Shown piece by piece: positions 1 through 12,685 of a stretch of 64,000 nucleotides of DNA. Made by a program: the position numbers and the translations under genes. Origin of the DNA: Eledone cirrhosa (lineage: Eukaryota); assembly GCA_964016885.1 (NCBI GenBank), contig OZ024750.1, positions 34,844,001 to 34,908,000 of the forward strand. Reading direction: 5' to 3'. Below the pieces are notes generated by a model. It did no database searches and was not told the origin of the DNA. It was given only the letters and a program-made list of their open reading frames with translations. The first letter of the stretch is position 1. Each line of letters begins with the position of its first letter.

Positions 1-213
1 TACTTACCCCCTCCCTCCTGTAGTACCAGACATGTGGTGGAATCAATTGAACTAACAATACTTACCCCCTCCCCCCTGTAGTACCAGACATGTGGTGGAA
101 TCAATTGAACTAACAATACTTACCCCCTCCCTCCTGTAGTACCAGACATGTGGTGGGATCAATTGAACTAACAATACTTACCCCCTCCCTCCTGTAGTAC
201 CAGACATGTGGTG
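1..213. repeat. 58-bp tandem repeat, at least 3.7 copies, probably truncated by the window start
   Basis: Unit tacttaccccctccctcctgtagtaccagacatgtggtggaatcaattgaactaacaa recurs at 1, 59, 117 and 175 with single substitutions. Confidence 0.95.
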
Positions 214-258
214 AGAAGAAGAAGAAGAAGAAGAAGAAGAAGAAGAAGAAGAAGAAGA
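214..258. repeat. (AAG)n microsatellite
   Basis: About 14-15 perfect AAG/GAA units, seen directly. Confidence 0.95.
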
Positions 259-475
259 TATGATACAAAAATATGAAATAAAAACTGACCAGGAGTTGGA
301 TTAGACTAACAACACTTCTTGTTTGATATTTTAACCCTTTAACATTTAAACCGGCTGTATCTGGTCAGAATTCCCTCACCTCTTTCTGTTCAAATCAGCT
401 GTAACTGACCACTCATACTTATATTAAGGCATTGTTCTCAAAATAAATAATATTAAAATCTTATAGATTCTATAT

Positions 476-898
476 TATGTGAGATATTTTTGTGAGGTAA
501 AGCCTTTACTGTGAAAATACAATAGTATATATAGAGTAATGTAAATGTTATGTGAGATAATTTTGTGAGGTAAAGCCTTTACTGTGAAAATACAATAGTA
601 TATATAGAGTAATGTAAATGTTATGTGAGATATTATGTGAGGTAAAGCCTTTACTGTGAAAATACAATAGTATATATAGAGTAATGTAAATGTTATGTGA
701 GATATTATGTGAGGTAAAGCCTTTACTGTGAAAATACAATAGTATATATAGAGTAATGTAAATGTTATGTGAGATATTATGTGAGGTAAAGCCTTTACCA
801 TGAAAATACAATAGTATATATAGAGTAATGTAAATGTTATGTGAGATATTATGTGAGGTAAAGCCTTTACCATGAAAATACAATAGTATATATAGAGT
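476..898. repeat. 72-bp minisatellite, left arm (~5.9 units)
   Basis: Unit gttatgtgagatattatgtgaggtaaagcctttac(tg/ca)tgaaaatacaatagtatatatagagtaatgtaaat. The 24-aa periodicity in the ORF track confirms a 72-bp period. Confidence 0.97.
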
Positions 899-904
899 GG
901 TTTC

Positions 905-910
905 TTTATT
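905..910 (-). promoter_or_regulatory. Polyadenylation signal of the retrotransposon
   Basis: AATAAA on the minus strand, 6 nt before the 3' junction with the minisatellite. Confidence 0.6.
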
Positions 911-1135
911 TGCCATTAGGGCACAAAAGGTAGGGACAGATACAAGGGGGGAAGTTTACATATAATTAACGAGTACAAAGATATAACAATGAAATAACAA
1001 CAACAAACGAAGTCCTCAATAGGGAGGGGGCATTAACATGGGTCGCACACACCCCGGAAAAAATGTGCAACCCTTCTCCTCAGGAGCACAAAGAGTAGGT
1101 GCTTCCCTCGTCTCCTCTTTTTCCTCTTCTTTCAC

Positions 1136-4100
1136 CTACAGGCTGATATAGAGAGAAGACCCATTCACTCTGGCCATTCTCCCTACTTTCACCCACCTTT
1201 CATAAAATTTGCTGGGGTAGAGCACCTCTCTCTCCATTCTGATCCTTCTTTTAAAATGGTATTTGAAAAAGGGGACCAGTTGTTGGCCGGAGAGAAAGGT
1301 GTCTGACCTCAGCCCTTTCAGCCTCGTCCACCATACAACTTCTTTAGCCATGGCTATCACACAGAGAAAAACCGCTTCTCCTTCGTTTTTGAAAGGGGGA
1401 GGCGGTTTGATCGTGACAATGGACTCGGTGGTCAACCGGATTGGTCCCACCCTCGACAGTAGTCGTTCCACATAGCCCCACAGGTCAGCAATGCCTGGGC
1501 AGTGTACGAATGCGTGCGCAACGGTTTCGTCATCATGCACGCATCTCGGACAGATCTTATTCAAAGGATCTCTACCCAGGCTCCCATGCCTGTGGAGCTT
1601 GTCTCGAACGGGTAGAGCCCCTCGGTAGCACTGCCAAGCCAGGGACTTTTGGAAGTTGTCCATCGGTCCAGGGCCAAACGTCCTACCGAACAGACTGGCC
1701 AGTTCATCTTCCTCCATGCCTAGAGCTTCTCCGAGAGCATCGTCGCACCTGCTGCGTACCAACCCTCTATAGAATGTCGACGTGGAGTCTCCACTGATTG
1801 CCGGGTCCGCTTTCCAGAGGACCGTGAGCGCCTGGGCACATTCAATGTGCCAGTCGCCCACTTTTCTCGGTCTTTGCTTGACCCAGGATTGCAGCTCGGT
1901 GAGCGAGACGAGTCTGGGAAAGGCTCGCCTCACAAACGGGGCCCACACCGGTTGACCGGTGAGGAATACCTGGAGGTGCCGTAGCCTTAATGCGTGTTTA
2001 CGCATCTGTAGCCACGGCATCCCCAGCCCTCCTTTCGAAGGGTGTTGACAGCAGATGGATCTCCTCACCAAAGGGGTCCGCTTGTTCCAAAGAAATTGGA
2101 ACAGCGCGCACTCCATTTTGGCGAGTCTTTTCACTGGGCAAGGCACGACGGTCAAGCGGTAGTAGATGACGGATGCTATATAAGTATTCGCCACCTCCGC
2201 TCGACCTTTCAGGGATAGTTTGCACTGGGCCCACTTCTGGGTGAGTGCAAACACCCTGGCCGTTACCTCATTCCAGTTTTTCTCCACCTGGAGGTCTGGT
2301 CCGAACCAGACCCCAAGCAGCTTCACCGGGCCCTCCGTCCAGCGTCCGACGACGTCGTTGGAGGGCATCGGTTTGCCTCTCCATATTCCGAGTTGCAAAC
2401 CGACGGACTTGTCCCGGTTCAGCTTGGCTCCTGTAAACCTTTCATATTCCTCCAGTAAGGTGCCGATCTCACCGATTTGCGAGGTTTTCGACACCATTAC
2501 TGTCACGTCATCGGCGTAGGCCGACGCCGCTTTCTGCAATCCCGGTTCCAAAGAGATGCCCTGCAACCGCTCCAACTTCCGCAGTAGTGGCTCAAGAGCC
2601 AGCACATACAGTAGGGAGGAGAGAGGGCATCCCTGTCGGATGGATCGCATGATTTGGAACGGCTCCGAGAGGTGGCCGTTCACCTTGACCCTTGAGCAGA
2701 CGTTGCTGCTGTGCATCGCAGCAATCCAACCCCTGAAAACGGGTCCGAAGCCTGCCGCCGCGAGCACCGCATCCAGGTAACGATGGTCAACTCTATCGAA
2801 AGCTTTAGATTGATCCAAGTTGATCAGGGCCCCACCAAAGCCGGGTTCATTCCCTACCCTCTCTATGATGTATCGCATAAGGTGGAGATTGTCGTGAATG
2901 GACCTGGACGGGATTGCGCATGTCTGCGCTTCTCCCACCAGGTTTCCAACGACAAGCGCCAACCTCTTCGCTAACACCTTGGCCAAAATCTTTAACTCTG
3001 TATTTAGCAGAGTTATGGGCCTGAAGTTACTTATGTCATCCCCCTTGTTCTCATCCTTCCTCACCAGCGTAACTACGCCCTTGGTCACAGAACTGGGAAT
3101 TCTCCCGTTCTGCTGCCAGTTGCAGTAGACCGCTTCGAGGATATCGGAGAACAAGTCCGGCATCGCTACATATAGCTCGTATGGTAGACCATCGAGACCC
3201 GGGGATTTGCGTTTGCCGCATTGGCTCAGCGCCGCCTCTATCTCAGCAGCTGAAATCGTCCTTTCGCAGGACTTCGCCTCCGCGTCCGAGAGGCGCGGCA
3301 GACCGTCGAGGTATGGATTGAAATCCATAGTCTCACCCGGCGCGCCGCCCCTCTCGAACAGTCGTGCAAAGTGCCGCTGAAAGGCCGCACACATCTGCCC
3401 AGGTTCAAGGATCACACGCCCATCCTGGTCCTTCAAAGACCGAATCGTGGACTTGTTCCCACTTTTTGCCTCTGTCACTCGGGCCCAGCTCACAGCTTTG
3501 GCTCCCTCATTACCCAGAGCACGTATTTTACTCCTGACAACGCAGCCTTCATGCTTCACCTCAAAGAACTGGTCTAAGGCCATTCTTGATGCCAGCACGC
3601 CGGCTACATTGCCACTCCTAATCGCCTCTTCTACTCTATCTACTAATTCCCTTTCCGTCTTGTTCCTATCCCTTGCTAATTCCTGACTAAAACCTATCGA
3701 TTCTATTCTAATTGCTCTCTTAAGAGAGCTCCACCACCTGTTGTTGACAATTGCCCCTGTCAAACTCTGCTTAACTAACGTGCTAATCCGTTTACTGTAA
3801 GCTTTGCTTCTCGGTAAGGACAAGTTCAGCTTCCAGTAACCGGGTCCCTGTCTATGGGTTCTATCAAGGTTGGCTATGCAGGTCACTAACTTGTGATCCG
3901 AATAGTCAACCATGAACATTTTTGGACAGCTAAATGTGTCCCTATCGTTCTCTCTAACTAGGACCCTATCTAGGTACGACCTAGATGTTCCACTGCGATT
4001 GGTCCACGTCCATAGTGGTACAGTCGGAAAATCTAGTCGATATCTATCGGCCAGGTCAAATCGGCCGATTAACCTTTTGAGGCTTTTACACCCCCCTCTA

Positions 4101-4573
4101 TTGGCACATGCCCCTACATAGTCCCAACGTGCATCCAGGATACCATTCCAGTCCCCCACTAAAAGCAAGGAGCGGGACGTTCCCAGAAAAGTTTCCAGAC
4201 GTTGGAAGTATTCCGGCCGCGCTGCCCAAAAAGGGGCGTACACAGCTATTAGTCTAAGGGCTCCACTTTCACTACTGCCGACGTCTAAAACCACCAGTCG
4301 ACCCTCCGGGTCCAGGTGCACCTTCTGTATGGCGAGGCCCAGGTGTTTTCGCAGCAGAACGACAACTCCACCCCCACCCCCCGGTTGACAGAGAGATGCG
4401 AAGATCTCAAAGTCGTCGAAGAGGGGCGCCAGTTGGTGCTCGCTGCTGATCCTGGACTCGCAAATAGCCATTACATCCATTCTATGCGACCTGAGATCGT
4501 TTAAAAGTTTGCCTTGTTTCCAAGACAGTCCCAGGCCACGTACATTCAGACACCCAACTCTTATATCAGCCAT
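1136..4573 (-). CDS. ORF2 polyprotein: AP-like endonuclease, reverse transcriptase and C-terminal CCHC zinc finger (1145 aa)
   Basis: APE motifs GCLNVRGL, VYAP, GDWN, SYLDR, SDH. RT motifs KSPGLDG, FRPITLLN, DQSKAFDRV, RQGCPLS, YADD. C-terminal CPRC-x8-H-x4-C. The frame is uninterrupted and starts with ATG. Confidence 0.97.
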   Translation of the reverse strand: MADIRVGCLNVRGLGLSWKQGKLLNDLRSHRMDVMAICESRISSEHQLAPLFDDFEIFASLCQPGGGGGVVVLLRKHLGLAIQKVHLDPEGRLVVLDVGSSESGALRLIAVYAPFWAARPEYFQRLETFLGTSRSLLLVGDWNGILDARWDYVGACANRGGCKSLKRLIGRFDLADRYRLDFPTVPLWTWTNRSGTSRSYLDRVLVRENDRDTFSCPKMFMVDYSDHKLVTCIANLDRTHRQGPGYWKLNLSLPRSKAYSKRISTLVKQSLTGAIVNNRWWSSLKRAIRIESIGFSQELARDRNKTERELVDRVEEAIRSGNVAGVLASRMALDQFFEVKHEGCVVRSKIRALGNEGAKAVSWARVTEAKSGNKSTIRSLKDQDGRVILEPGQMCAAFQRHFARLFERGGAPGETMDFNPYLDGLPRLSDAEAKSCERTISAAEIEAALSQCGKRKSPGLDGLPYELYVAMPDLFSDILEAVYCNWQQNGRIPSSVTKGVVTLVRKDENKGDDISNFRPITLLNTELKILAKVLAKRLALVVGNLVGEAQTCAIPSRSIHDNLHLMRYIIERVGNEPGFGGALINLDQSKAFDRVDHRYLDAVLAAAGFGPVFRGWIAAMHSSNVCSRVKVNGHLSEPFQIMRSIRQGCPLSSLLYVLALEPLLRKLERLQGISLEPGLQKAASAYADDVTVMVSKTSQIGEIGTLLEEYERFTGAKLNRDKSVGLQLGIWRGKPMPSNDVVGRWTEGPVKLLGVWFGPDLQVEKNWNEVTARVFALTQKWAQCKLSLKGRAEVANTYIASVIYYRLTVVPCPVKRLAKMECALFQFLWNKRTPLVRRSICCQHPSKGGLGMPWLQMRKHALRLRHLQVFLTGQPVWAPFVRRAFPRLVSLTELQSWVKQRPRKVGDWHIECAQALTVLWKADPAISGDSTSTFYRGLVRSRCDDALGEALGMEEDELASLFGRTFGPGPMDNFQKSLAWQCYRGALPVRDKLHRHGSLGRDPLNKICPRCVHDDETVAHAFVHCPGIADLWGYVERLLSRVGPIRLTTESIVTIKPPPPFKNEGEAVFLCVIAMAKEVVWWTRLKGLRSDTFLSGQQLVPFFKYHFKRRIRMEREVLYPSKFYERWVKVGRMARVNGSSLYISL

Positions 4574-4594
4574 GTTGGTTAAAAGAGGAAGGAC

Positions 4595-6318
4595 CTACCT
4601 GTTCGGCTCCTGAGGAGCAGGTTGCACAATATCCATGGGCGTATTGGAGGGGTTGTTTGGTGGGGTGTTGTTCTGTGGTGGAGTGGGGGTGTTTGGTGAG
4701 GTGTGGGTGGGGAAACGTTTCAAGAGGACGCGGTTATAGGGTCGAGTACATGTTTTCCCCACGTCCTCAGGAAAGTTCTCTCTTAGTTTTGCATAGGTGT
4801 CCATTGGGAGTCTTATCATTTTTAAATGCGGTTTGTTGGCCGCGCTTGCAAAGAATTGCCCTTCAGTTTCCACCGAAGGGTCTTTGTGTATTGTTTTTAC
4901 TAGTTCTTTGTTATTTGTGTTAATGTATGTATACTGTTTTATTTGTGTTGTGTTTGTTTGTTGTTCTTGTGTGTGCTTACGTTTTGTTGTATGTGTTATG
5001 TTTTGGGGTGGGGCGGATTTTGTTTGTTCTGTTTGTTTTGTTTTTGTTGGTGGTTGTGTGTTTGTTTCGTTTATGTTCGAGTGGTGCTTTCTTTTTTTCC
5101 TTTTTACAGGTTGGAAGGGTTCCCCCTCTTCGTCACTAGGTGCCGTTTCCGCTGGGTCCTCGTCCGTGCTGTCGGGTAGTGGTGTATTTTGGGGTTTTGT
5201 TGTATTTGTGTGTGTTTTGGGAGTTGTTTTGGGTGGGGCCGTGTCTTGTGTTATTTTTCCCTGTTGTTTTTGTTGTTGTTGTGGTGGTGGTGGTGGAGGT
5301 GGTGGTGGTGGTGTGTGGGGTGTAGGCAAAAGAGCCTTTTTTTTGTCAATTGAGGACAAGCAGCCCTTAGATGACCCCTGCTTGAACAGTAGTAACATAT
5401 GGGCCTCCTACCCTCGGCTGAAATATATATAAATGTTTCTCCATCGAGGGACACCCTCTGTGGTATTCTAGCTATTCGTTCTGGTCTCATTTGGACCAGA
5501 ACCTCCACGCTCAAACCGCCGAAAACGTCTGTGGTGACTTCTCCTACTGAGAGGATTCCGTCCTCGTCTTCTAAAAATCCTGTTAGTACCCAGGAAATGC
5601 ATGCATTTGGCCGGATTCCGGAGACCCTTATCTTCTGCGTTCTTTTCCCTAAATATGTGGGGAAAAATGTATGTAGCTTGGAAACAATTGGTGCCACAGA
5701 GTATTTCCTGGCCGTCAATTGATCCTTCATTAGGACCGTTATATTCCCATAGAGTGGCCCTTTTTGTATGAACGATATATCACTCCACACATTTTTTAGG
5801 ACCAGCTCAATCTCTTTTTGGGATAATTGAGTTGGTTTCCTTGTTATGTTGGAAATTATTCTGAAAGATATCGTTCTTAGCGTCGTGTCTCTTTTGATTT
5901 CTTGTGGGGAGGTGATTGTGAAGTCTCCTCCTTCTTTGAAAGTTACATAATGTTTCGCTTCCTTCATCTTTTCTCTCAGAGTTGTAATGTCCAGTTGCTT
6001 GCAGGTTTGTGTTTTCCGGACCGCCTGTGCAAAGGAGGTACCAGTAGTGGGTTCGCTTTGTTTGGTGTTATCGTTATTTTTTCCTTGGTTGGTGTTGTGA
6101 CTATTGCTGTTATTGTCGTTGTTGTTTTTGTCTGCGTTTATGTGACTTTCTGGGTTTTCACCCATTTTTACAAATTTTTCTTTTAATTCCGTGTTCCATG
6201 TTTCTTTTGCAGAAGTCAGGAGGGAAGACTTAGAGCCTTGTGCTTCTAGCTTCTCTGTATCACCTTTCTTAGGGGGCGTGGCTTTCACGTTAGGATGAGA
6301 TGTGAAAATTCCGTCCAT
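4595..6318 (-). CDS. ORF1 nucleic-acid-binding (gag-like) protein, ~574 aa when joined across a -1 frameshift in the A8 run at 5337-5344
   Basis: First ATG at 6318 (MDGIFTSH; the track start at 6411 is TTG). SFAQAV motif and CX2CX4HX4C knuckle CYYCSSRGHLRAAC. Continuation in the 4595..5398 frame is Pro/Thr/Gln-rich with FQPVKRKKRK and ends 21 nt before the ORF2 ATG. One extra A joins the two frames. Confidence 0.85.
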
Positions 6319-6528
6319 TTCTATTAGTTTGCTGTAATAAGTTTTTAACTGGAAAATTCGCCCCCAAAAGGGGCGAAAATAAATAAACTCAAAGTTTGAC
6401 GACCAAGGCAAGGGGTTAACGTATATTACAGTATAAAAAAATTAATCAAAACTCACTTTTGAGTAAGTAAATCCGACTCGGTAGCCGAGCTTGTTCACAC
6501 ACGTCAACACACGTCTCTCGTATACGAG

Positions 6529-7323
6529 ATGTTATGTGAGATATTATGTGAGGTAAAGCCTTTACTGTGAAAATACAATAGTATATATAGAGTAATGTAA
6601 ATGTTATGTGAGATATTATGTGAGGTAAAGCCTTTACCATGAAAATACAATAGTATATATAGAGTAATGTAAATGTTATGTGAGATATTATGTGAGGTAA
6701 AGCCTTTACCATGAAAATACAATAGTATATATAGAGTAATGTAAATGTTATGTGAGATATTATGTGAGGTAAAGCCTTTACCATGAAAATACAATAGTAT
6801 ATATAGAGTAATATAAATGTTATGTGAGATATTATGTGAGGTAAAGCCTTTACCATGAAAATACAATAGTATATATAGAGTAATGTAAATGTTATGTGAG
6901 ATATTATGTGAGGTAAAGCCTTTACCATGAAAATACAATAGTATATATAGAGTAATGTAAATGTTATGTGAGATATTATGTGAGGTAAAGCCTTTACCAT
7001 GAAAATACAATAGTATATATAGAGTAATGTAAATGTTATGTGAGATATTATGTGAGGTAAAGTCTTTACTGTGAAAATACAATAGTATATATAGAGTAAT
7101 GTAAATGTTATGTGAGATATTATGTGAGGTAAAGCCTTTACTGTGAAAATACAATAGTATATATAGAGTAATGTAAATGTTATGTGGGATATTATGTGAG
7201 GTAAAGCCTTTACTGTGAAAATACAATAGTATATATAGAGTAATGTAAATGTTATGTGAGATATTATGTGAGGTAAAGCCTTTACTGAGAAAATACAATA
7301 GTATATATAGAGTAATGTAAATG
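6529..7323. repeat. 72-bp minisatellite, right arm (~11 units)
   Basis: Same unit as 476-898, with near-identical copies. Confidence 0.97.
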
Positions 7324-7424
7324 CTAAATGCTTAAGCTGACTTTCATGACATCATTTGTTATAGAAAACTAAGATATGACTAGAATAGACAAGAAAACGG
7401 GGAATAGTATAAATATATCATATA

Positions 7425-7592
7425 CCATATTTCCTGGCGCTGAAGACACTTCATCCTCGAGGACGCACTCTAATTTTGACAATCAAAAATTTGAAAAAAA
7501 ATAATAAACAACCTTCGGCCTCTAGGGCACATGATAGATTTTTGAGACTTATTTTAGGAAAACAGTAGCGTCTTCAGCGCCGGGAAATACGG
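7425..7592. mobile_element. MITE with ~25-bp terminal inverted repeats, Tc1/mariner-like
   Basis: TA|CCATATTTCCTGGCGCTGAAGACAC ... GCGTCTTCAGCGCCGGGAAATACGG|TC. The TIRs match with 3 mismatches; TA on the left, degenerate TC on the right. Confidence 0.75.
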
Positions 7593-7821
7593 TCACTTAA
7601 TGAAAACAACAACAAAAAACTTTAAAATAGATTAATAAATGAAATAACCAGTTTTCTCTGATTTCCTTATATTCTGATGAAGGGAATTTTAAGTCGTGAA
7701 ATATTAAGACAAAAGAAACAACAAAAACAAAGAAAGATTACCAGGTAACTAAATTTTTAGTTACTGTAATCTTATTGTTCATTTTGCATTATTTAGACAT
7801 ATACCTTTCCACATTATATAA

Positions 7822-8553
7822 TCGATATATATAAAACAGAGAATGTCTGTCTGTTTATCTGCCTGTCTGACTCCCTAAAACTCAAGAACCACCCAACCCA
7901 TTGTTTTCAAATTTACACATGTAATACTTATGGTCGTGTGAGTGTTTTAAGCAAAAACAATTTCAAATTTTCAATGCCCTAGGGACCGCATTAGGCGCCG
8001 GTAACATCGCGCCCTTATAATATCTGTCTGCATTATGACATTATCTGTGTGTGTGTGTATATATGTATATATAGTGTATATATATATATATATATATAGT
8101 GTGTATATATATATATATATAGTGTGTAACGTTTTTCGAAATATTTACTTCTGAGTTCACAGATTAATTTTTTTTAGTTTCAGAAAATCCCGGTAAGGAT
8201 GAAAGCAGCGATTCTTCACTTAATCTTTAATCTGTTATTTTAATATATATATATATAATTATATATTCGTGTACAGATATTTTTGCATACACAATAACAA
8301 AATATAAACAAACGTATTTATTTCACGAGGCTCGACAGCAGCAAAAACAACAACAAAAAAGAGACGGAACGCAATTACATGCTTTTAAAAAATCTTAATT
8401 GAAAATTATTTGCCTATTCACCCAAAGCGACTTCATTTTTTATTAGGACTTCTGCATCAATTGCTGAACATACAACACAACTGTTTCAGAAAGGAGGAAT
8501 AACCATGCCAATCTATGTTTAGAATCCCGAGCAATGCCAGGCCATTCTGCTAG
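7822..8553 (+). mobile_element. Non-autonomous Helitron-like element
   Basis: 5' A|TCGATATATATAAAA followed by (GTCT)-like repeats. 3' degenerate GC hairpin CCCGAGCAATGCCAGG about 8 nt before CTAG|T. It sits between A and T with no TSD, the canonical Helitron end structure. Confidence 0.7.
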
Positions 8554-8605
8554 TATATTATACAATGCTTCAAGCAGACGACAACATTTTATTAAATGAA
8601 ATAAT

Positions 8606-8787
8606 TGTTTCTACTATGGGCACAAGGCCAGATATTACACAGTACATTACTGGTACTTTATTTTATCGACCCCGTAAGGATGAAAGGCAAAGTTAACCTC
8701 GGCGGAATTTGAACTCAGAATGGCAAGGGCCGTAACTCTATGCGTCAAAGCATGGCGTCCGACCCTCTACCGATACTGCCAATCCAC
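8606..8787 (-). mobile_element. tRNA-derived SINE, copy 1
   Basis: Minus strand reads ggattggcagtatcggtag (A-box-like), then GAGTTCAAATTCC (B-box), then ctttcatccttacggggtcgataaaataaagtaccag. Homologous to three other copies in the window. Confidence 0.8.
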
Positions 8788-8794
8788 GGTTTAT

Positions 8795-9004
8795 GATTTA
8801 GACACAAGGCCAACAATTTTGGGGGAGGGAAAAAGTTGTTTAAATCGACTTCAGTGCATTACTGGTACTTTATTTTATGGACCCGCTTAAGGATGAAAGG
8901 TAAAGTTAACCTCAGTGGGATTTCAACTCAGAACGTAAAGAGCCATAGCTCTATGCTACAAAGCATGGTGTCTGGCACTCTACCAATACTGCCAATCTAC
9001 CGCC
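8795..9004 (-). mobile_element. tRNA-derived SINE, copy 2
   Basis: Same family as copy 1 and more diverged; it retains the ttcccctccccc..aaatt internal segment. Confidence 0.78.
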
Positions 9005-9021
9005 AATTAGATAATATTATT

Positions 9022-9207
9022 GGATTGGCAGTATCGGTAGAGGGTCTGACGCCATGGTTTGAAGCACAGAGTTACGGCCCTTTATTGTCTGAGTTCAAAT
9101 CCCGCCGAGGTTAACTTTGCCTTTCATCCTTACGGAGTCGATAAAATAAAGTACCAGTAATACACTGGGATAATTGCTGGCCTTGTGTCAAAAGTAGAAA
9201 TAATTAT
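9022..9207 (+). mobile_element. tRNA-derived SINE, copy 3, head-to-head with copy 2
   Basis: ggattggcagtatcggtagagggtc...GAGTTCAAATCCC...gtcgataaaataaagtaccagtaa...ggccttgtgtc. Confidence 0.8.
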
Positions 9208-9222
9208 TGACAGGGATATCAA

Positions 9223-9248
9223 AGTAGTAGTAGTGGTGGTGGTGGTGG

Positions 9249-9282
<34 letters not shown>
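9223..9282. repeat. Compound microsatellite (GTA)n(GTG)n(ATA)n
   Basis: Seen directly. Confidence 0.9.
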
Positions 9283-9283
<1 letters not shown>

Positions 9284-9706
9284 TGTGAGTGGTAATTGGA
9301 GTAGAATGTCCGTTTGATAGCAGAGTAATGAAAAATAGAGAAAGAAAAAAAGTAGAGCTTGAAATATGAAATCTTCAAGTGCTGGAAAAAAAAAAAAAAA
9401 AAATTAACAAGATCATGATCTTGTCAATTATTATTAGAGTGTTGAGAAACTGTGACAAAGAATTTCAAAGTTAACCTTGAAAAACTAGACCTTAATCTGG
9501 AATAGGTGGGTGGTGGATGTGGTGCAAAAAAATGTTTAATTGGATCAACAAGAAAGCTTCTCCTTCCAGACCAGAGGTTGTGCGTTGTCTGATGAAGGAA
9601 GCTTATTTATACTGCCCTTCCTGACATCAGCTCCCTTTAGTTGTCTCATACTGACACACAGGGATATGGTGTGCCTATTCTAAAAATTGGAATAAACACC
9701 CACGCA

Positions 9707-9736
<30 letters not shown>

Positions 9737-9740
<4 letters not shown>

Positions 9741-10255
9741 AAAAAGTTTAACCCCGACGGCAGAGCTCAAGCCGTTTCGACGGCTATCTCTGGACAGAAA
9801 TAGCCATCGAAACGGCTTGAACTCTGCCGTCGAGGTTAAACTTTTTCCTATTACCCACTCTACTACCTTAAGTATCGAGTACTCTGGTGCGTTATGGTCC
9901 ATCTGGTTCCTTACCACACTTCCTTCGTTTATATATATATAGGAAAAGAGTCAGAACCCTGACGGCTGAGCTCTGGCTGTTTCAACAGCTAGATCTACCT
10001 GCCGAAACGGCCAGAGCTCAGCCGTTGGGGTCCTGACTCTTTTCCTATATATATATATATATAGGAACAAGTAAGACCCTGACGGCTGAGCTCAAGCCGT
10101 TTCGACGGCTAATTCATGTCCAGAATTAGCCGTTGAAACGGCTTGAGCTCAGCCGTCGGGGTCTTACTCGTTCCTATTACCTACTCTACTACCCTAAGTA
10201 TTGAGTACTTTGGTGCGTTATGGTCCACCTGGTTCCTTACCACATTTCCTTCGTT
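9737..10255. mobile_element. Three related palindromic elements separated by (TA)n: A 9737-9930, B 9940-10047, C 10062-10255
   Basis: Each has a ~110-bp hairpin TAGGAA...TTCCTA with a conserved gacggc.gagctc...gtttc core. A and C share an ~80-bp tail ending ggttccttaccaca.ttccttcgtt before (TA)n. Confidence 0.75.
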
Positions 10256-10273
10256 ATATATATATATATATAT

Positions 10274-11278
10274 TGTTATACTTGGGGAGGGTCATATTGT
10301 TGTAATAATATTGCCAGAATTAATAACAGAACACACTCACTGTTTGGTTGGTTTTCGCTTCTGTGTCTTTTATATCGGTTAATTTAATTTATTCGGTCCT
10401 CAATGTTACCATTGACTGACCAACGGTCAAAAATACAAATACAATATAGACACAAACACATATATATAGTCTAACAAAGTTCTTTCGTTGCACATCGGCA
10501 ACATCGTCAGTGGTTACCGTTCTGTTGTTGTCTGGCATGTTCGTATAGTACTGAAAAAAACAAAAAAAAAAACAAAAATAAAAACGGTTCAGTACTATAC
10601 GAACATGCCAGACAACAACCCGATGGTAACATAGAGAACATAGAAATTAGAATAATATCTAAACATAGAAATGACCCAGCAGATAGGCAAATCAGAGAGG
10701 CCAGCGAAATAGAACTTAGAAGGCCAAGGCTAAACAGAAAAAAATGAATGGAATAATAACAACACCCAAACAAACAACACTGACCTAAGACAAGTATAAA
10801 TAAATAAATAAATACATACACAAGCACAATAACAACAAACACATATAAACACACACTAGTAAACTAAGATAGAATACAATAACCAATACACAGTCCCCAC
10901 ACACGAACACACATCAAACAAAACACTATACACACACGCAAACGCATGCGCAGAGAAGACAAAAAAAAAAAATAAAATAAAATAAACAGACTAAGTAAAG
11001 ATGACGTAGGTATACAATACAACGGGAGGAAACATAATAACACCATTGACAATGTTGCAGATGTGCAATGAAAGAACTTTGTTAGACTATATATGTGTTT
11101 GTGTCTATATTGTATCTGTATTTTTTACCGTTGGTCAGTCAATGGTAACATTGAGGACCGAATAAATTAAATTAACCGATATAAAAGACAGAAACGAAAA
11201 CCAACCAAACAGTGAATCTGTTCTGTTATTAATTCTGGCAATATTATTACACAAATATGACCCTCCCCAAGTATAACA
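10274..11278. mobile_element. Non-autonomous DNA transposon with ~240-bp TIRs, TGT...ACA termini and a 4-bp ATAT flank (Ginger-like)
   Basis: 10274-10513 is the reverse complement of 11042-11278 with scattered mismatches. Termini are TGTTATACTTGGGG and CCCCAAGTATAACA, with ATAT on both sides. No coding capacity. Confidence 0.75.
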
Positions 11279-11512
11279 ATATTTGTTTCGACACACGATT
11301 TCATATCAAAAACCTTGCAAAACTATATATATATATATATATATTTCGTTTCTGAATTTTTGACAATATATGAACAATCGTCTGGTTGTGGAACCAACCA
11401 ACCAACCGGAAATTTATAAATTCCTAAATTTATAAATTTTATTTATAATAAATTGAAGTGAAAGCAACTGGTGCATGTGTTTCTTATTGGCAACATGACC
11501 CTCCCAAAGCAT

Positions 11513-11547
<35 letters not shown>

Positions 11548-11582
11548 CATCATCATCATCATCATCGTCAACATCATTATTA

Positions 11583-11797
11583 GGGTGGTGGATTGGCAGA
11601 ATCGGTAGCGTGTCGGACAAAATGTTTAACGGCATAGAGTTACGGCCCTTTACATTCTGAGTTCAAATCCCACCGAGGTTAGCATTGCTTTCATCCTTAT
11701 GGAGTTGATAAAATAACACACCAGTAATGCACTGGGGTCGATTTAATCGACTTTCCCCTCCCCACCAAATTGCTGACCTTATGCCTATATAGAAAAT
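11583..11797 (+). mobile_element. tRNA-derived SINE, copy 4
   Basis: ggtggtggattggcagaatcggtag...GAGTTCAAATCCC...ctttcatcc...gataaaataa..ccagtaatgcactggggtcgat. Confidence 0.8.
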
Positions 11798-11856
11798 ATT
11801 TGGTTATATCTGTCTAATTATAGACATTTTTAATTCTATTTTAAAAGGTACTCATT

Positions 11857-12131
11857 TGTCATGTCACCAACACAACCACTTTACAGGGTGGACTGGGTGC
11901 TTTTTGACGTGTCACCAACACAACTACTTTACAGGGTGGACTGGGTGCTTGTTGTCATGTCAACGAAACAAACACTTTACAGGGTGGACTGGGTGTTTTT
12001 TGTTGTGTCACTAGCACAACTACTTTACAGGGCGGACTGGGTGTTTTTTGTCATGTCACCAACACGACCACCTTGCAAGGTGGACTGGGCACATTTTTCA
12101 TGTCACCTGCACGACCACCTTTATAGGGTGG
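11857..12131. repeat. 48-bp minisatellite, ~5.7 diverged copies
   Basis: Unit tgtcatgtcaccaacacaaccactttacagggtggactgggtgctttt; 16-aa periodicity in ORF 11861..12148. Confidence 0.9.
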
Positions 12132-12338
12132 TAAATTACTTACACTAAATATTTGAGGAGATACAAAGACTTCTATATCAGTTTTATATGTAACTGATGC
12201 ATCATTAACAATATGGATTTGTTTGAAATAATTAACTGGCTTTTCTCTAAAATACCAATAGGATTAACAGCTATATCATAATAGATTAAATCAAGTGGAT
12301 AATTGTTAAATATATCCAATCAATGTCATTGACATCTT

Positions 12339-12376
12339 TGTTGCTGTTGTTGTTGTTGCTGTTGTTGTTGTTGTTT
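12339..12376. repeat. (GTT)n imperfect microsatellite
   Basis: Seen directly. Confidence 0.8.
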
Positions 12377-12685
12377 GTATATGTTGATGTATAACTGTTG
12401 TAATGTGCTGACATGAAATAATTTAGACCTATGTCCAGTTTTTTCTACTCAAACTATGAAATAATTTAGACATCTCTTGCCACCCCATCCCTTTCCAGTT
12501 CTTTTCCTTCTTTCTTTCTCTCTTTCTTTTTTTTTTTATATATTTATTCTTTCTTTCCTTGTGTCCCCTCCCCCTTTTTTTTTTTACTAAAATAGGTTTG
12601 TTTCTTTTGTATTCATTTAATTAAAATATGCTAAACTGAAAAAAACCCATCAAAATGACACATTTAATCATTCCCCACTCATAAA

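Follow-up and report, generated by a model that had tools for sequence, protein, structure and literature searches.

The Drosophila copia element, a long terminal repeat (LTR) retrotransposon, splices an intron that covers all of pol (PMC5580714). Programmed removal of a catalytic gene by splicing has so far been described for LTR copia elements. In long interspersed nuclear elements (LINEs), the excess of ORF1p, the protein of open reading frame 1 (ORF1), is attributed in the literature to inefficient reinitiation at ORF2 on one bicistronic RNA. Here, we analyzed a 64,000-nucleotide stretch of the genome of the cephalopod Eledone cirrhosa (assembly GCA_964016885.1, contig OZ024750.1, positions 34,844,001 to 34,908,000 of the forward strand; hereafter, the window), which carries a full-length non-LTR retrotransposon of the L1/Tx1 type on its minus strand (899 to 6528). 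From sequence and modeled folding, it is probable (about 0.6) that this LINE lineage splices out its inter-ORF spacer together with all of ORF2, which would give an ORF1-only mRNA of ~2.2 kb, and that a long-range duplex masks both splice sites and the ORF2 AUG in the full-length RNA.

By its sequence, the element belongs to the L1/Tx1 group of non-LTR retrotransposons. It has no LTRs, and a separate ORF1 (4595 to 6318, minus strand, starting at 6318) lies upstream of ORF2 (1136 to 4573, minus strand, starting with the ATG at 4573). The 1145-amino acid ORF2 product contains apurinic/apyrimidinic endonuclease (APE), reverse transcriptase (RT), and zf-RVT domains (Pfam PF03372, PF00078, and PF13966), and its best PDB match was human L1 ORF2p (E = 3.5e-53). 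The closest named relative was an Argonauta hians protein (64%), and further ORF2 relatives in protein databases were at ~40% identity. A CCHC knuckle (CX2CX4HX4C) can be read in the ORF1 sequence, which had no Pfam match. Tx1 is the label that we take to apply from general features of the clade rather than from an RT tree. Target-sequence-specific insertion is typical of that clade, and the element lies, without a poly(A) tail, within a 72-bp tandem repeat that forms its target on both sides (475 to 898 on the 3′ flank and 6529 to 7323 on the 5′ flank).

The element is a member of a young, active family, referred to as family A. The 25 best genomic copies were all 99% identical and shared both the 72-bp repeat and the position of insertion within it; ORF2 was intact in 22/25, and an intact ORF1 of 573 to 578 amino acids was found in 19/25. 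The 16-mer at the end of ORF1 had 308 exact copies in the 3.0-Gb genome. The claim that excision of ORF2 would leave ORF1 unchanged thus applies to the family, whose ORF1 ends in QEPNR, but not to the copy in the window, in which ORF1 is frameshifted near 5340.

Splice-like sites over the two stop codons

The original prediction placed splice-site-like sequences over both stop codons, and the window bears this out base by base (donor 4598, acceptor 1136). ORF1 ends with GAG CCG AAC AG/G TAG GT (slashes mark predicted exon borders), so that the motif CAG/GTAGGT (4593 to 4601, minus strand) has its GT at 4598-4597 and shares the stop codon at 4597-4595. This motif matches the U2-type 5′ splice site AG/GTRAGT, and the pattern G/GTA[AG]GT occurred only once in the ~5 kb of a family-A representative, at the ORF1 stop. 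ORF2 ends with CTG TAG/GTGA, with the AG at 1137-1136 (predicted acceptor region, 1133 to 1160, minus strand). Between the two lies a predicted intron of 3463 nt (4598 to 1136), composed of the spacer (4574 to 4594, minus strand; a pyrimidine run and CCAAC, followed by the ORF2 AUG) and ORF2. Joining the sites in silico gave EPNR-stop, with the TGA lying in the postsplice ORF1 frame; the expectation that the ORF1 C-terminus is kept with a new stop therefore held. The other acceptor features were borne out in part. At 1143, the alternative CAG does occur and would give S-L-stop, but it is limited to families A and G. A pyrimidine tract exists at about −24 to −12, where it pairs with ORF2 codons 2 to 6, but it is weak near the AG (6/10 pyrimidines in the last 10 nt). 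The GAA-rich 3′ untranslated region (UTR) proposed as an enhancer does contain a purine run, but this run pairs with the pyrimidine spacer between the ORFs.

Relatives in this genome came from two protein queries, which yielded 60 partly redundant loci, and from a degenerate pattern search (2508 matches; 40 were fetched among the 100 listed, chosen to span motif variants). The 11 representatives used (A, G, F, H, H2, D1 to D3, E, B, and C) had ORF2 DNA identities of 69 to 97%; silent sites were nearly saturated, with an identity at fourfold sites between the deep lineages of 0.52 to 0.58 and a three-way identity of 131/334. The old single copies L152 and L155, which have no recognizable donor, were excluded, and L152 also lacks the spacer. 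Family B has the appearance of an E-type ORF1 fused to an ORF1 end and ORF2 of C type (L056), and some copies (L153, L159, and L167) combine a D-type 5′ part with an E- or C-type 3′ end, as recombinants or nested insertions would.

The donor was highly conserved among the 11 representatives. Positions −1, +1, +2, +3, and +5 were identical in 11/11 and positions −2 and +6 in 10/11, and position +4 was A or G; the 4 nt on either side of the motif were identical in only 4 to 7 of 11. The motif is read as R-stop in A, G, F, H, B, and C and as G-K-stop in D and E, in the ORF1 frame set by the homologous protein sequence upstream (1 nt is lost in H2). Because the motif is kept in two ORF1 phases, coding is not its explanation. 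Nor is pairing, since its duplex partner varies by family and, in F, H, and D, three of its six intron bases are left without a pair. With neither coding nor pairing explaining it, the conservation points to selection on the donor as a U1-complementary site. The rough chance of such an 8-mer being kept in three lineages was 0.39^4 to 0.39^6, or 0.02 to 0.004.

The anticipated conservation of GT and AG in sister families was found for the donor GT (11/11) and in part for the acceptor, since the ORF2 stop is TAG in 9/11 representatives but TAA in B and C. By a crude tract score, the ORF2-stop AG ranked 2nd to 7th among 242 to 270 downstream AGs in 7/8 scored representatives. In B and C, the top-ranked AG was a CAG after a T-rich tract in the 3′UTR, which lies 158 to 178 nt beyond the stop and precedes AATAAA by 73 nt; this CAG was present in 60/62 TAA-ending loci, which are partly redundant. 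In the donor-defined frame, a stop fell within one codon after the ORF2-stop AG in 51/56 copies (A, 31/31; G, 6/6; D, 10/13; E, 4/4; F, 0/1; H, 0/1), compared with 0/56 in the ORF2 frame and 4/56 in the third frame. This count excludes one spurious regular-expression row (L153), and the expression missed some degenerate ends. By lineage, the early stop holds for A, G, D1 to D3, and E, is mixed in F, and does not hold for H (7 codons). Back-up stops would be expected in the frame of ORF2 itself. In three family-D1 copies (L172, L175, and L143), a second donor-like motif directly follows the predicted acceptor at the ORF2 stop (TAG/GTAGGT), an arrangement that resembles a recursive splice site.

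A duplex across ORF2

As originally proposed, both sites lie inside a long-range duplex, which appeared in the minimum-energy fold of the 3.9-kb RNA from 4800 to 900. It spans ~90 nt and contains 72 pairs, between a 5′ arm at about 4556 to 4648 (minus strand; ORF1 end, donor, spacer, and ORF2 start) and a 3′ arm at 1043 to 1155 (minus strand; ORF2 end, acceptor, purine run, and an anti-donor ACCTAC at about 1099 to 1094). The 72 pairs of the fold connect 4648-4565 with 1043-1147. A repeat finder alone shows 35 nt of the duplex. The energy was −110.5 kcal/mol, compared with −52 ± 6 for 100 dinucleotide shuffles (z = −10) and −51 ± 6 in 54 ORF2 windows. Within the duplex, the ORF2 AUG and CCAAC pair with the last codon and stop of ORF2. 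The purine run is paired to the pyrimidine spacer, ACCTAC to the donor, and the distal UTR to the end of ORF1.

All 11 representatives were predicted to form the duplex (z = −3.6 to −10.1), with differing sequences. Arms taken from different lineages mostly paired more weakly; the A arms gave −110 with each other but −59 to −75 with arms from D, E, B, and C. The own arm pair was the best in its row for 6/11, and the arm of a close relative was the best for G, D3, and C. The pairing register was also kept, with AUG positions +1, −1, and −2 facing the bases just before the ORF2-stop AG in nearly all 11, and the C-G pair at (−5, +1) was replaced by T-A in B and C. Among distant two-ORF metagenomic LINEs (18 of 20 scorable; best-segment identity about 23 to 30%), a donor-like motif at the ORF1 stop was seen in 1/18 and the duplex in 0/18 (z of −1.1 to +1.7 with 30 shuffles). 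No Rfam match was found in window positions 1 to 12500. It is highly probable that the duplex is genuine and under selection.

In all TAG families, the A of the ORF2 UAG (1137) lies unpaired across from the base at −3 in the ORF2 start context (4576) and could be a site for the RNA-specific adenosine deaminase ADAR, whose action there would abolish the stop and the acceptor together. No genomic trace of such editing was found: 119 ORF2-end matches contained no TGG, and the arms of 29 family-A copies had no A-to-G excess. Readthrough of the ORF1 stop was also set aside. It would fuse the two proteins in family A, where ORF1 and ORF2 are in frame with a single TAG between them (window 4597 to 4573), but in G and D the length of the spacer breaks this frame, indicating that readthrough is not conserved.

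Splicing and its alternatives

The conserved donor, the TAG in most families, the donor-frame stop, and the conserved duplex all fit a structure-controlled, ORF1-only spliced mRNA. Under this model, U1 would bind the donor, and the spliceosome would join it to the ORF2-stop AG or, in families B and C, to the CAG 158 to 178 nt deeper in the 3′UTR; the spliced mRNA would end at the element's own AATAAA (905 to 910, minus strand), a hexamer that is part of the predicted second exon and precedes the element's 3′ end by about 6 nt. Formation of the duplex's outer half would have to await transcription of the 3′UTR, so that folding would compete with splicing and set the ratio of spliced to full-length RNA and, hence, that of ORF1p to ORF2p. 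In unspliced RNA, the duplex would bury the ORF2 AUG against the last codon of ORF2 and keep ORF2 translation low. Because the donor, the AG, and the AUG all lie within the duplex rather than beside it, and because its outer half needs the 3′UTR, the duplex is read as a mask rather than as a bridge of the zebrafish type compared below. If this model is right, one RNA switch chooses between an ORF1-only mRNA and a full-length, translationally damped template.

Several observations weigh against splicing. No genomic copy carried the predicted joint: the family-A junction pattern was found 0 times, compared with the 308 ORF1 ends genome-wide, and the family-D pattern 0 times, compared with 722 matches of a gapped positive control, whereas the A/G/F pattern and the B/C stop-proximal pattern, for which denominators were not counted, also gave 0. 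The expected family-A copies lacking exactly 1136 to 4598 were therefore not found. This search left aside families E and H and the 3′UTR acceptor of B and C. Broad patterns, which catch about three quarters of arbitrary postdonor junctions, gave 1 match in A and 10 in D. Of these 11, ten proved to be mutants that are still unspliced, and the other is a short deletion of the microhomology type. In L185, the donor position is joined to ORF2 codon 6, with one base too many for a splice. In contigs of four runs (X1 to X4, of unrecorded kind), a stricter scan yielded 2 joints, neither at these sites; 15 of the 224 joints of a looser scan were listed. Protein databases contained no match for the spliced C-termini when the family-D ORF1 was used. 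The acceptor side is also less secure than the donor. Its ranking comes from a crude heuristic tract score and not a trained host model, the AG of E ranked 48th of 279, B and C have no AG at the ORF2 stop, and a U-rich UTR followed by an AG, as in B and C, can arise by chance. The representatives showed no conserved branch point, and the pyrimidine tract is weak; the tract and TAG/G are also explained by pairing to CCAAC-AUG and the first ORF2 codons. Predicted splicing would add 7 residues in H, 41 in the F copy L142, and 19 in B and C. For the old copies H and H2, an A- or G-family arm outscored their own arms. Copies within a family are not independent, leaving about 4 to 5 lineages, and the predicted junction itself is a product of sequence reading and modeling. 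The lack of ORF2-less copies does not refute splicing, because RNA without ORF2 is disfavored by cis preference, as described for L1 (PMC5860796). Spliced RNA would make no ORF2p and would not be copied back, which would explain the missing copies.

Four other explanations were considered. The donor might be a U1-binding site that acts without splicing, suppressing premature polyadenylation in the A-rich ORF1 or controlling export, with the duplex gating U1. U1 does inhibit premature termination in the EVD copia element (PMC5580714), and such a role would suit a donor that is better conserved than any acceptor, that persists in B and C without a stop AG, and that has left no spliced copies. 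AATAAA or ATTAAA also occurs 60 to 350 nt upstream of the donor in 8/11 representatives; however, the positions of these hexamers are not conserved, and A-rich sequence would be expected to contain them. We consider this explanation unlikely, since it predicts neither a position exactly at the last ORF1 codons nor donor-frame stops after the ORF2-stop AG that switch with the donor phase. Alternatively, the duplex could be a translational clamp, a device that holds the AUG of ORF2 against the ORF2 stop so that reinitiation is coupled or ribosomes are recycled, with the splice-like motifs as by-products of stop context and pairing. SART1 requires a structure downstream of its stop-start site (PMC5972666), and a clamp explains the TAG/G, the pyrimidine tract, and the purine run, as well as the conserved AUG/stop register with its C-G to T-A change in B and C. 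As a complete account it is rather unlikely, because it cannot explain a U1-complementary 8-mer kept in two phases with variable partners, nor the phase-matched stops; as a function of the duplex, it is compatible with splicing.

Retrotransposition of the spliced RNA as an ORF1-only, HAL1-like nonautonomous family, which the original prediction also raised, is very improbable. Such an RNA would still have its 5′ end, ORF1, and 3′ tail, and HAL1 elements, which encode ORF1p only, arose several times (PMC5753468). However, the absence of junction copies disfavors such a family at about the 1% level for A and D; the A/G/F and B/C stop-proximal patterns and runs X1 to X4 likewise held none. The internal deletions listed (at least 40 nt, in 40 sampled copies) were rejected as splicing products: they neither begin at the donor nor look intron-like, and many show microhomology. 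For comparison, spliced human L1 copies make up ~1.8% of full-length insertions, but they keep ORF2 (PMC5860796). That the splice-like motifs and the complementarity are both due to chance is barely credible. The small number of independent lineages and the computational basis leave some room for it, but the duplex reaches z = −10, is kept with different sequences in every family, and is absent from the 18 distant LINEs, and the donor is invariant. Splicing of ORF2 under control of the duplex thus remains our preferred explanation.

Setting of the element and related systems

No target-site duplication is present at 6529/898, and about 7 nt of the 72-bp unit are lost at the insertion point. 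Nearly all of the 25 best copies share the same insertion junctions, with the 3′ end ~6 nt past AATAAA, and the 5′ end opens with a short palindrome, TCTCGTATACGAGA (6531 to 6516), that partly overlaps the flank. Family-A copies also occur in head-to-tail runs, about 5.7 to 7 kb apart (C1:4.22-4.26 Mb and C10:41.38-41.43 Mb), which presumably are successive insertions into one repeat array. In family-specific contigs (runs X2 to X4, window 900 to 6560), depth was ~2000 to 2300 over ORF1 and ~2500 to 2700 over the 3′UTR; contig depth is not copy number, and the similarity hints weakly at a predominance of full-length copies, which would be unusual for LINEs. A viral scan found no relatives of the element, a metagenome scan found mostly distant LINEs, and an Atlas search returned only unnamed RT/endonuclease clusters. 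Elsewhere in the window, a 23-bp satellite array occupies 12686 to 64000 (by repeat scan to 20000 and by flat composition from there to 64000), and its translation yields two spurious 212-amino acid frames. Long inverted repeats at 8600 to 9208 (147-nt arms, 91%) and 9736 to 9851 (57-nt arms, 93%) are possibly similar to miniature inverted-repeat transposable elements, and tandem repeats have a 58-bp unit at 1 to 213 and a 48-bp unit at 11855 to 12131.

Targeted searches of the open-access literature, without subscription journals or Repbase, found no report of an ORF2-spanning intron or of such a duplex in a LINE. Thirteen recently active L1-Tx1 families have been reported in Octopus vulgaris (PMC13282606); the term "splic" does not occur in the accessible part of that text, and its transposable element (TE) library may hold the families described here. 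The complete arrangement, a cephalopod LINE RNA switch in which an ORF2-spanning intron is built into two stop codons and a ~90-nt duplex across 3.4 kb masks the sites and the AUG, is proposed tentatively, at slightly less than even odds. If it is true, ORF1-rich RNA in cephalopods would not mean mobilization-competent RNA, which would affect how TE expression is read. Even without splicing, the start-to-stop clamp around ORF2 is a conserved structure for which the same searches found no description.

Each known system shares part of this arrangement. Splice sites in LINE RNA are functional in human L1, where they give rise to spliced integrated retrotransposed elements (SpIREs), and are predicted here; SpIREs arise from 5′UTR or 5′UTR/ORF1 events, keep ORF2, and are seen as genomic copies (PMC5860796), whereas the event predicted here would take out ORF2, has a conserved donor, and had no genomic copy in the searches made. 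The predicted RNA resembles HAL1 in its ORF1-only content, but HAL1 is a genomic nonautonomous family (PMC5753468), and none was found here. As in the termination-reinitiation of SART1 and mammalian L1, a bicistronic LINE RNA has structure near the stop of ORF1 and the start of ORF2; in SART1, the structure lies downstream of an overlapping stop-start (PMC5972666), whereas here the ORFs are separate, 21 nt apart in family A, and the partner strand lies at a distance of 3.4 kb. In the AC/GT bridged introns of zebrafish, pairing across a long intron likewise joins its ends and can offset a weak 3′ site. Those repeats lie at the intron boundaries and promote splicing (PMC4691745), whereas pairing over the donor, AG, and exon, as seen here, fits masking better.

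The closest likenesses are to copia elements. Plant Ty1/copia shGAG RNAs (EVD and BARE1) also have a conserved U1 site past the structural gene and a stop soon after the junction, but their short intron is coupled to premature polyadenylation, whereas the product predicted here would use the normal terminal AATAAA (PMC5580714). The copia gag RNA is still closer, with a ~3-kb intron over the whole catalytic ORF, an RNA for the structural protein only, and a higher ratio of structural to catalytic protein. The differences are that copia has LTRs, a single ORF, and splicing that is proven (PMC5580714), whereas the present element is a bicistronic LINE with its sites on two stop codons, a duplex over these sites, and predicted splicing. 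By this analogy, the element, a LINE and not a member of copia, would be a functional counterpart of the copia gag RNA system and, if the splicing is real, would provide LINEs with an alternative to control of ORF1p:ORF2p by reinitiation only.

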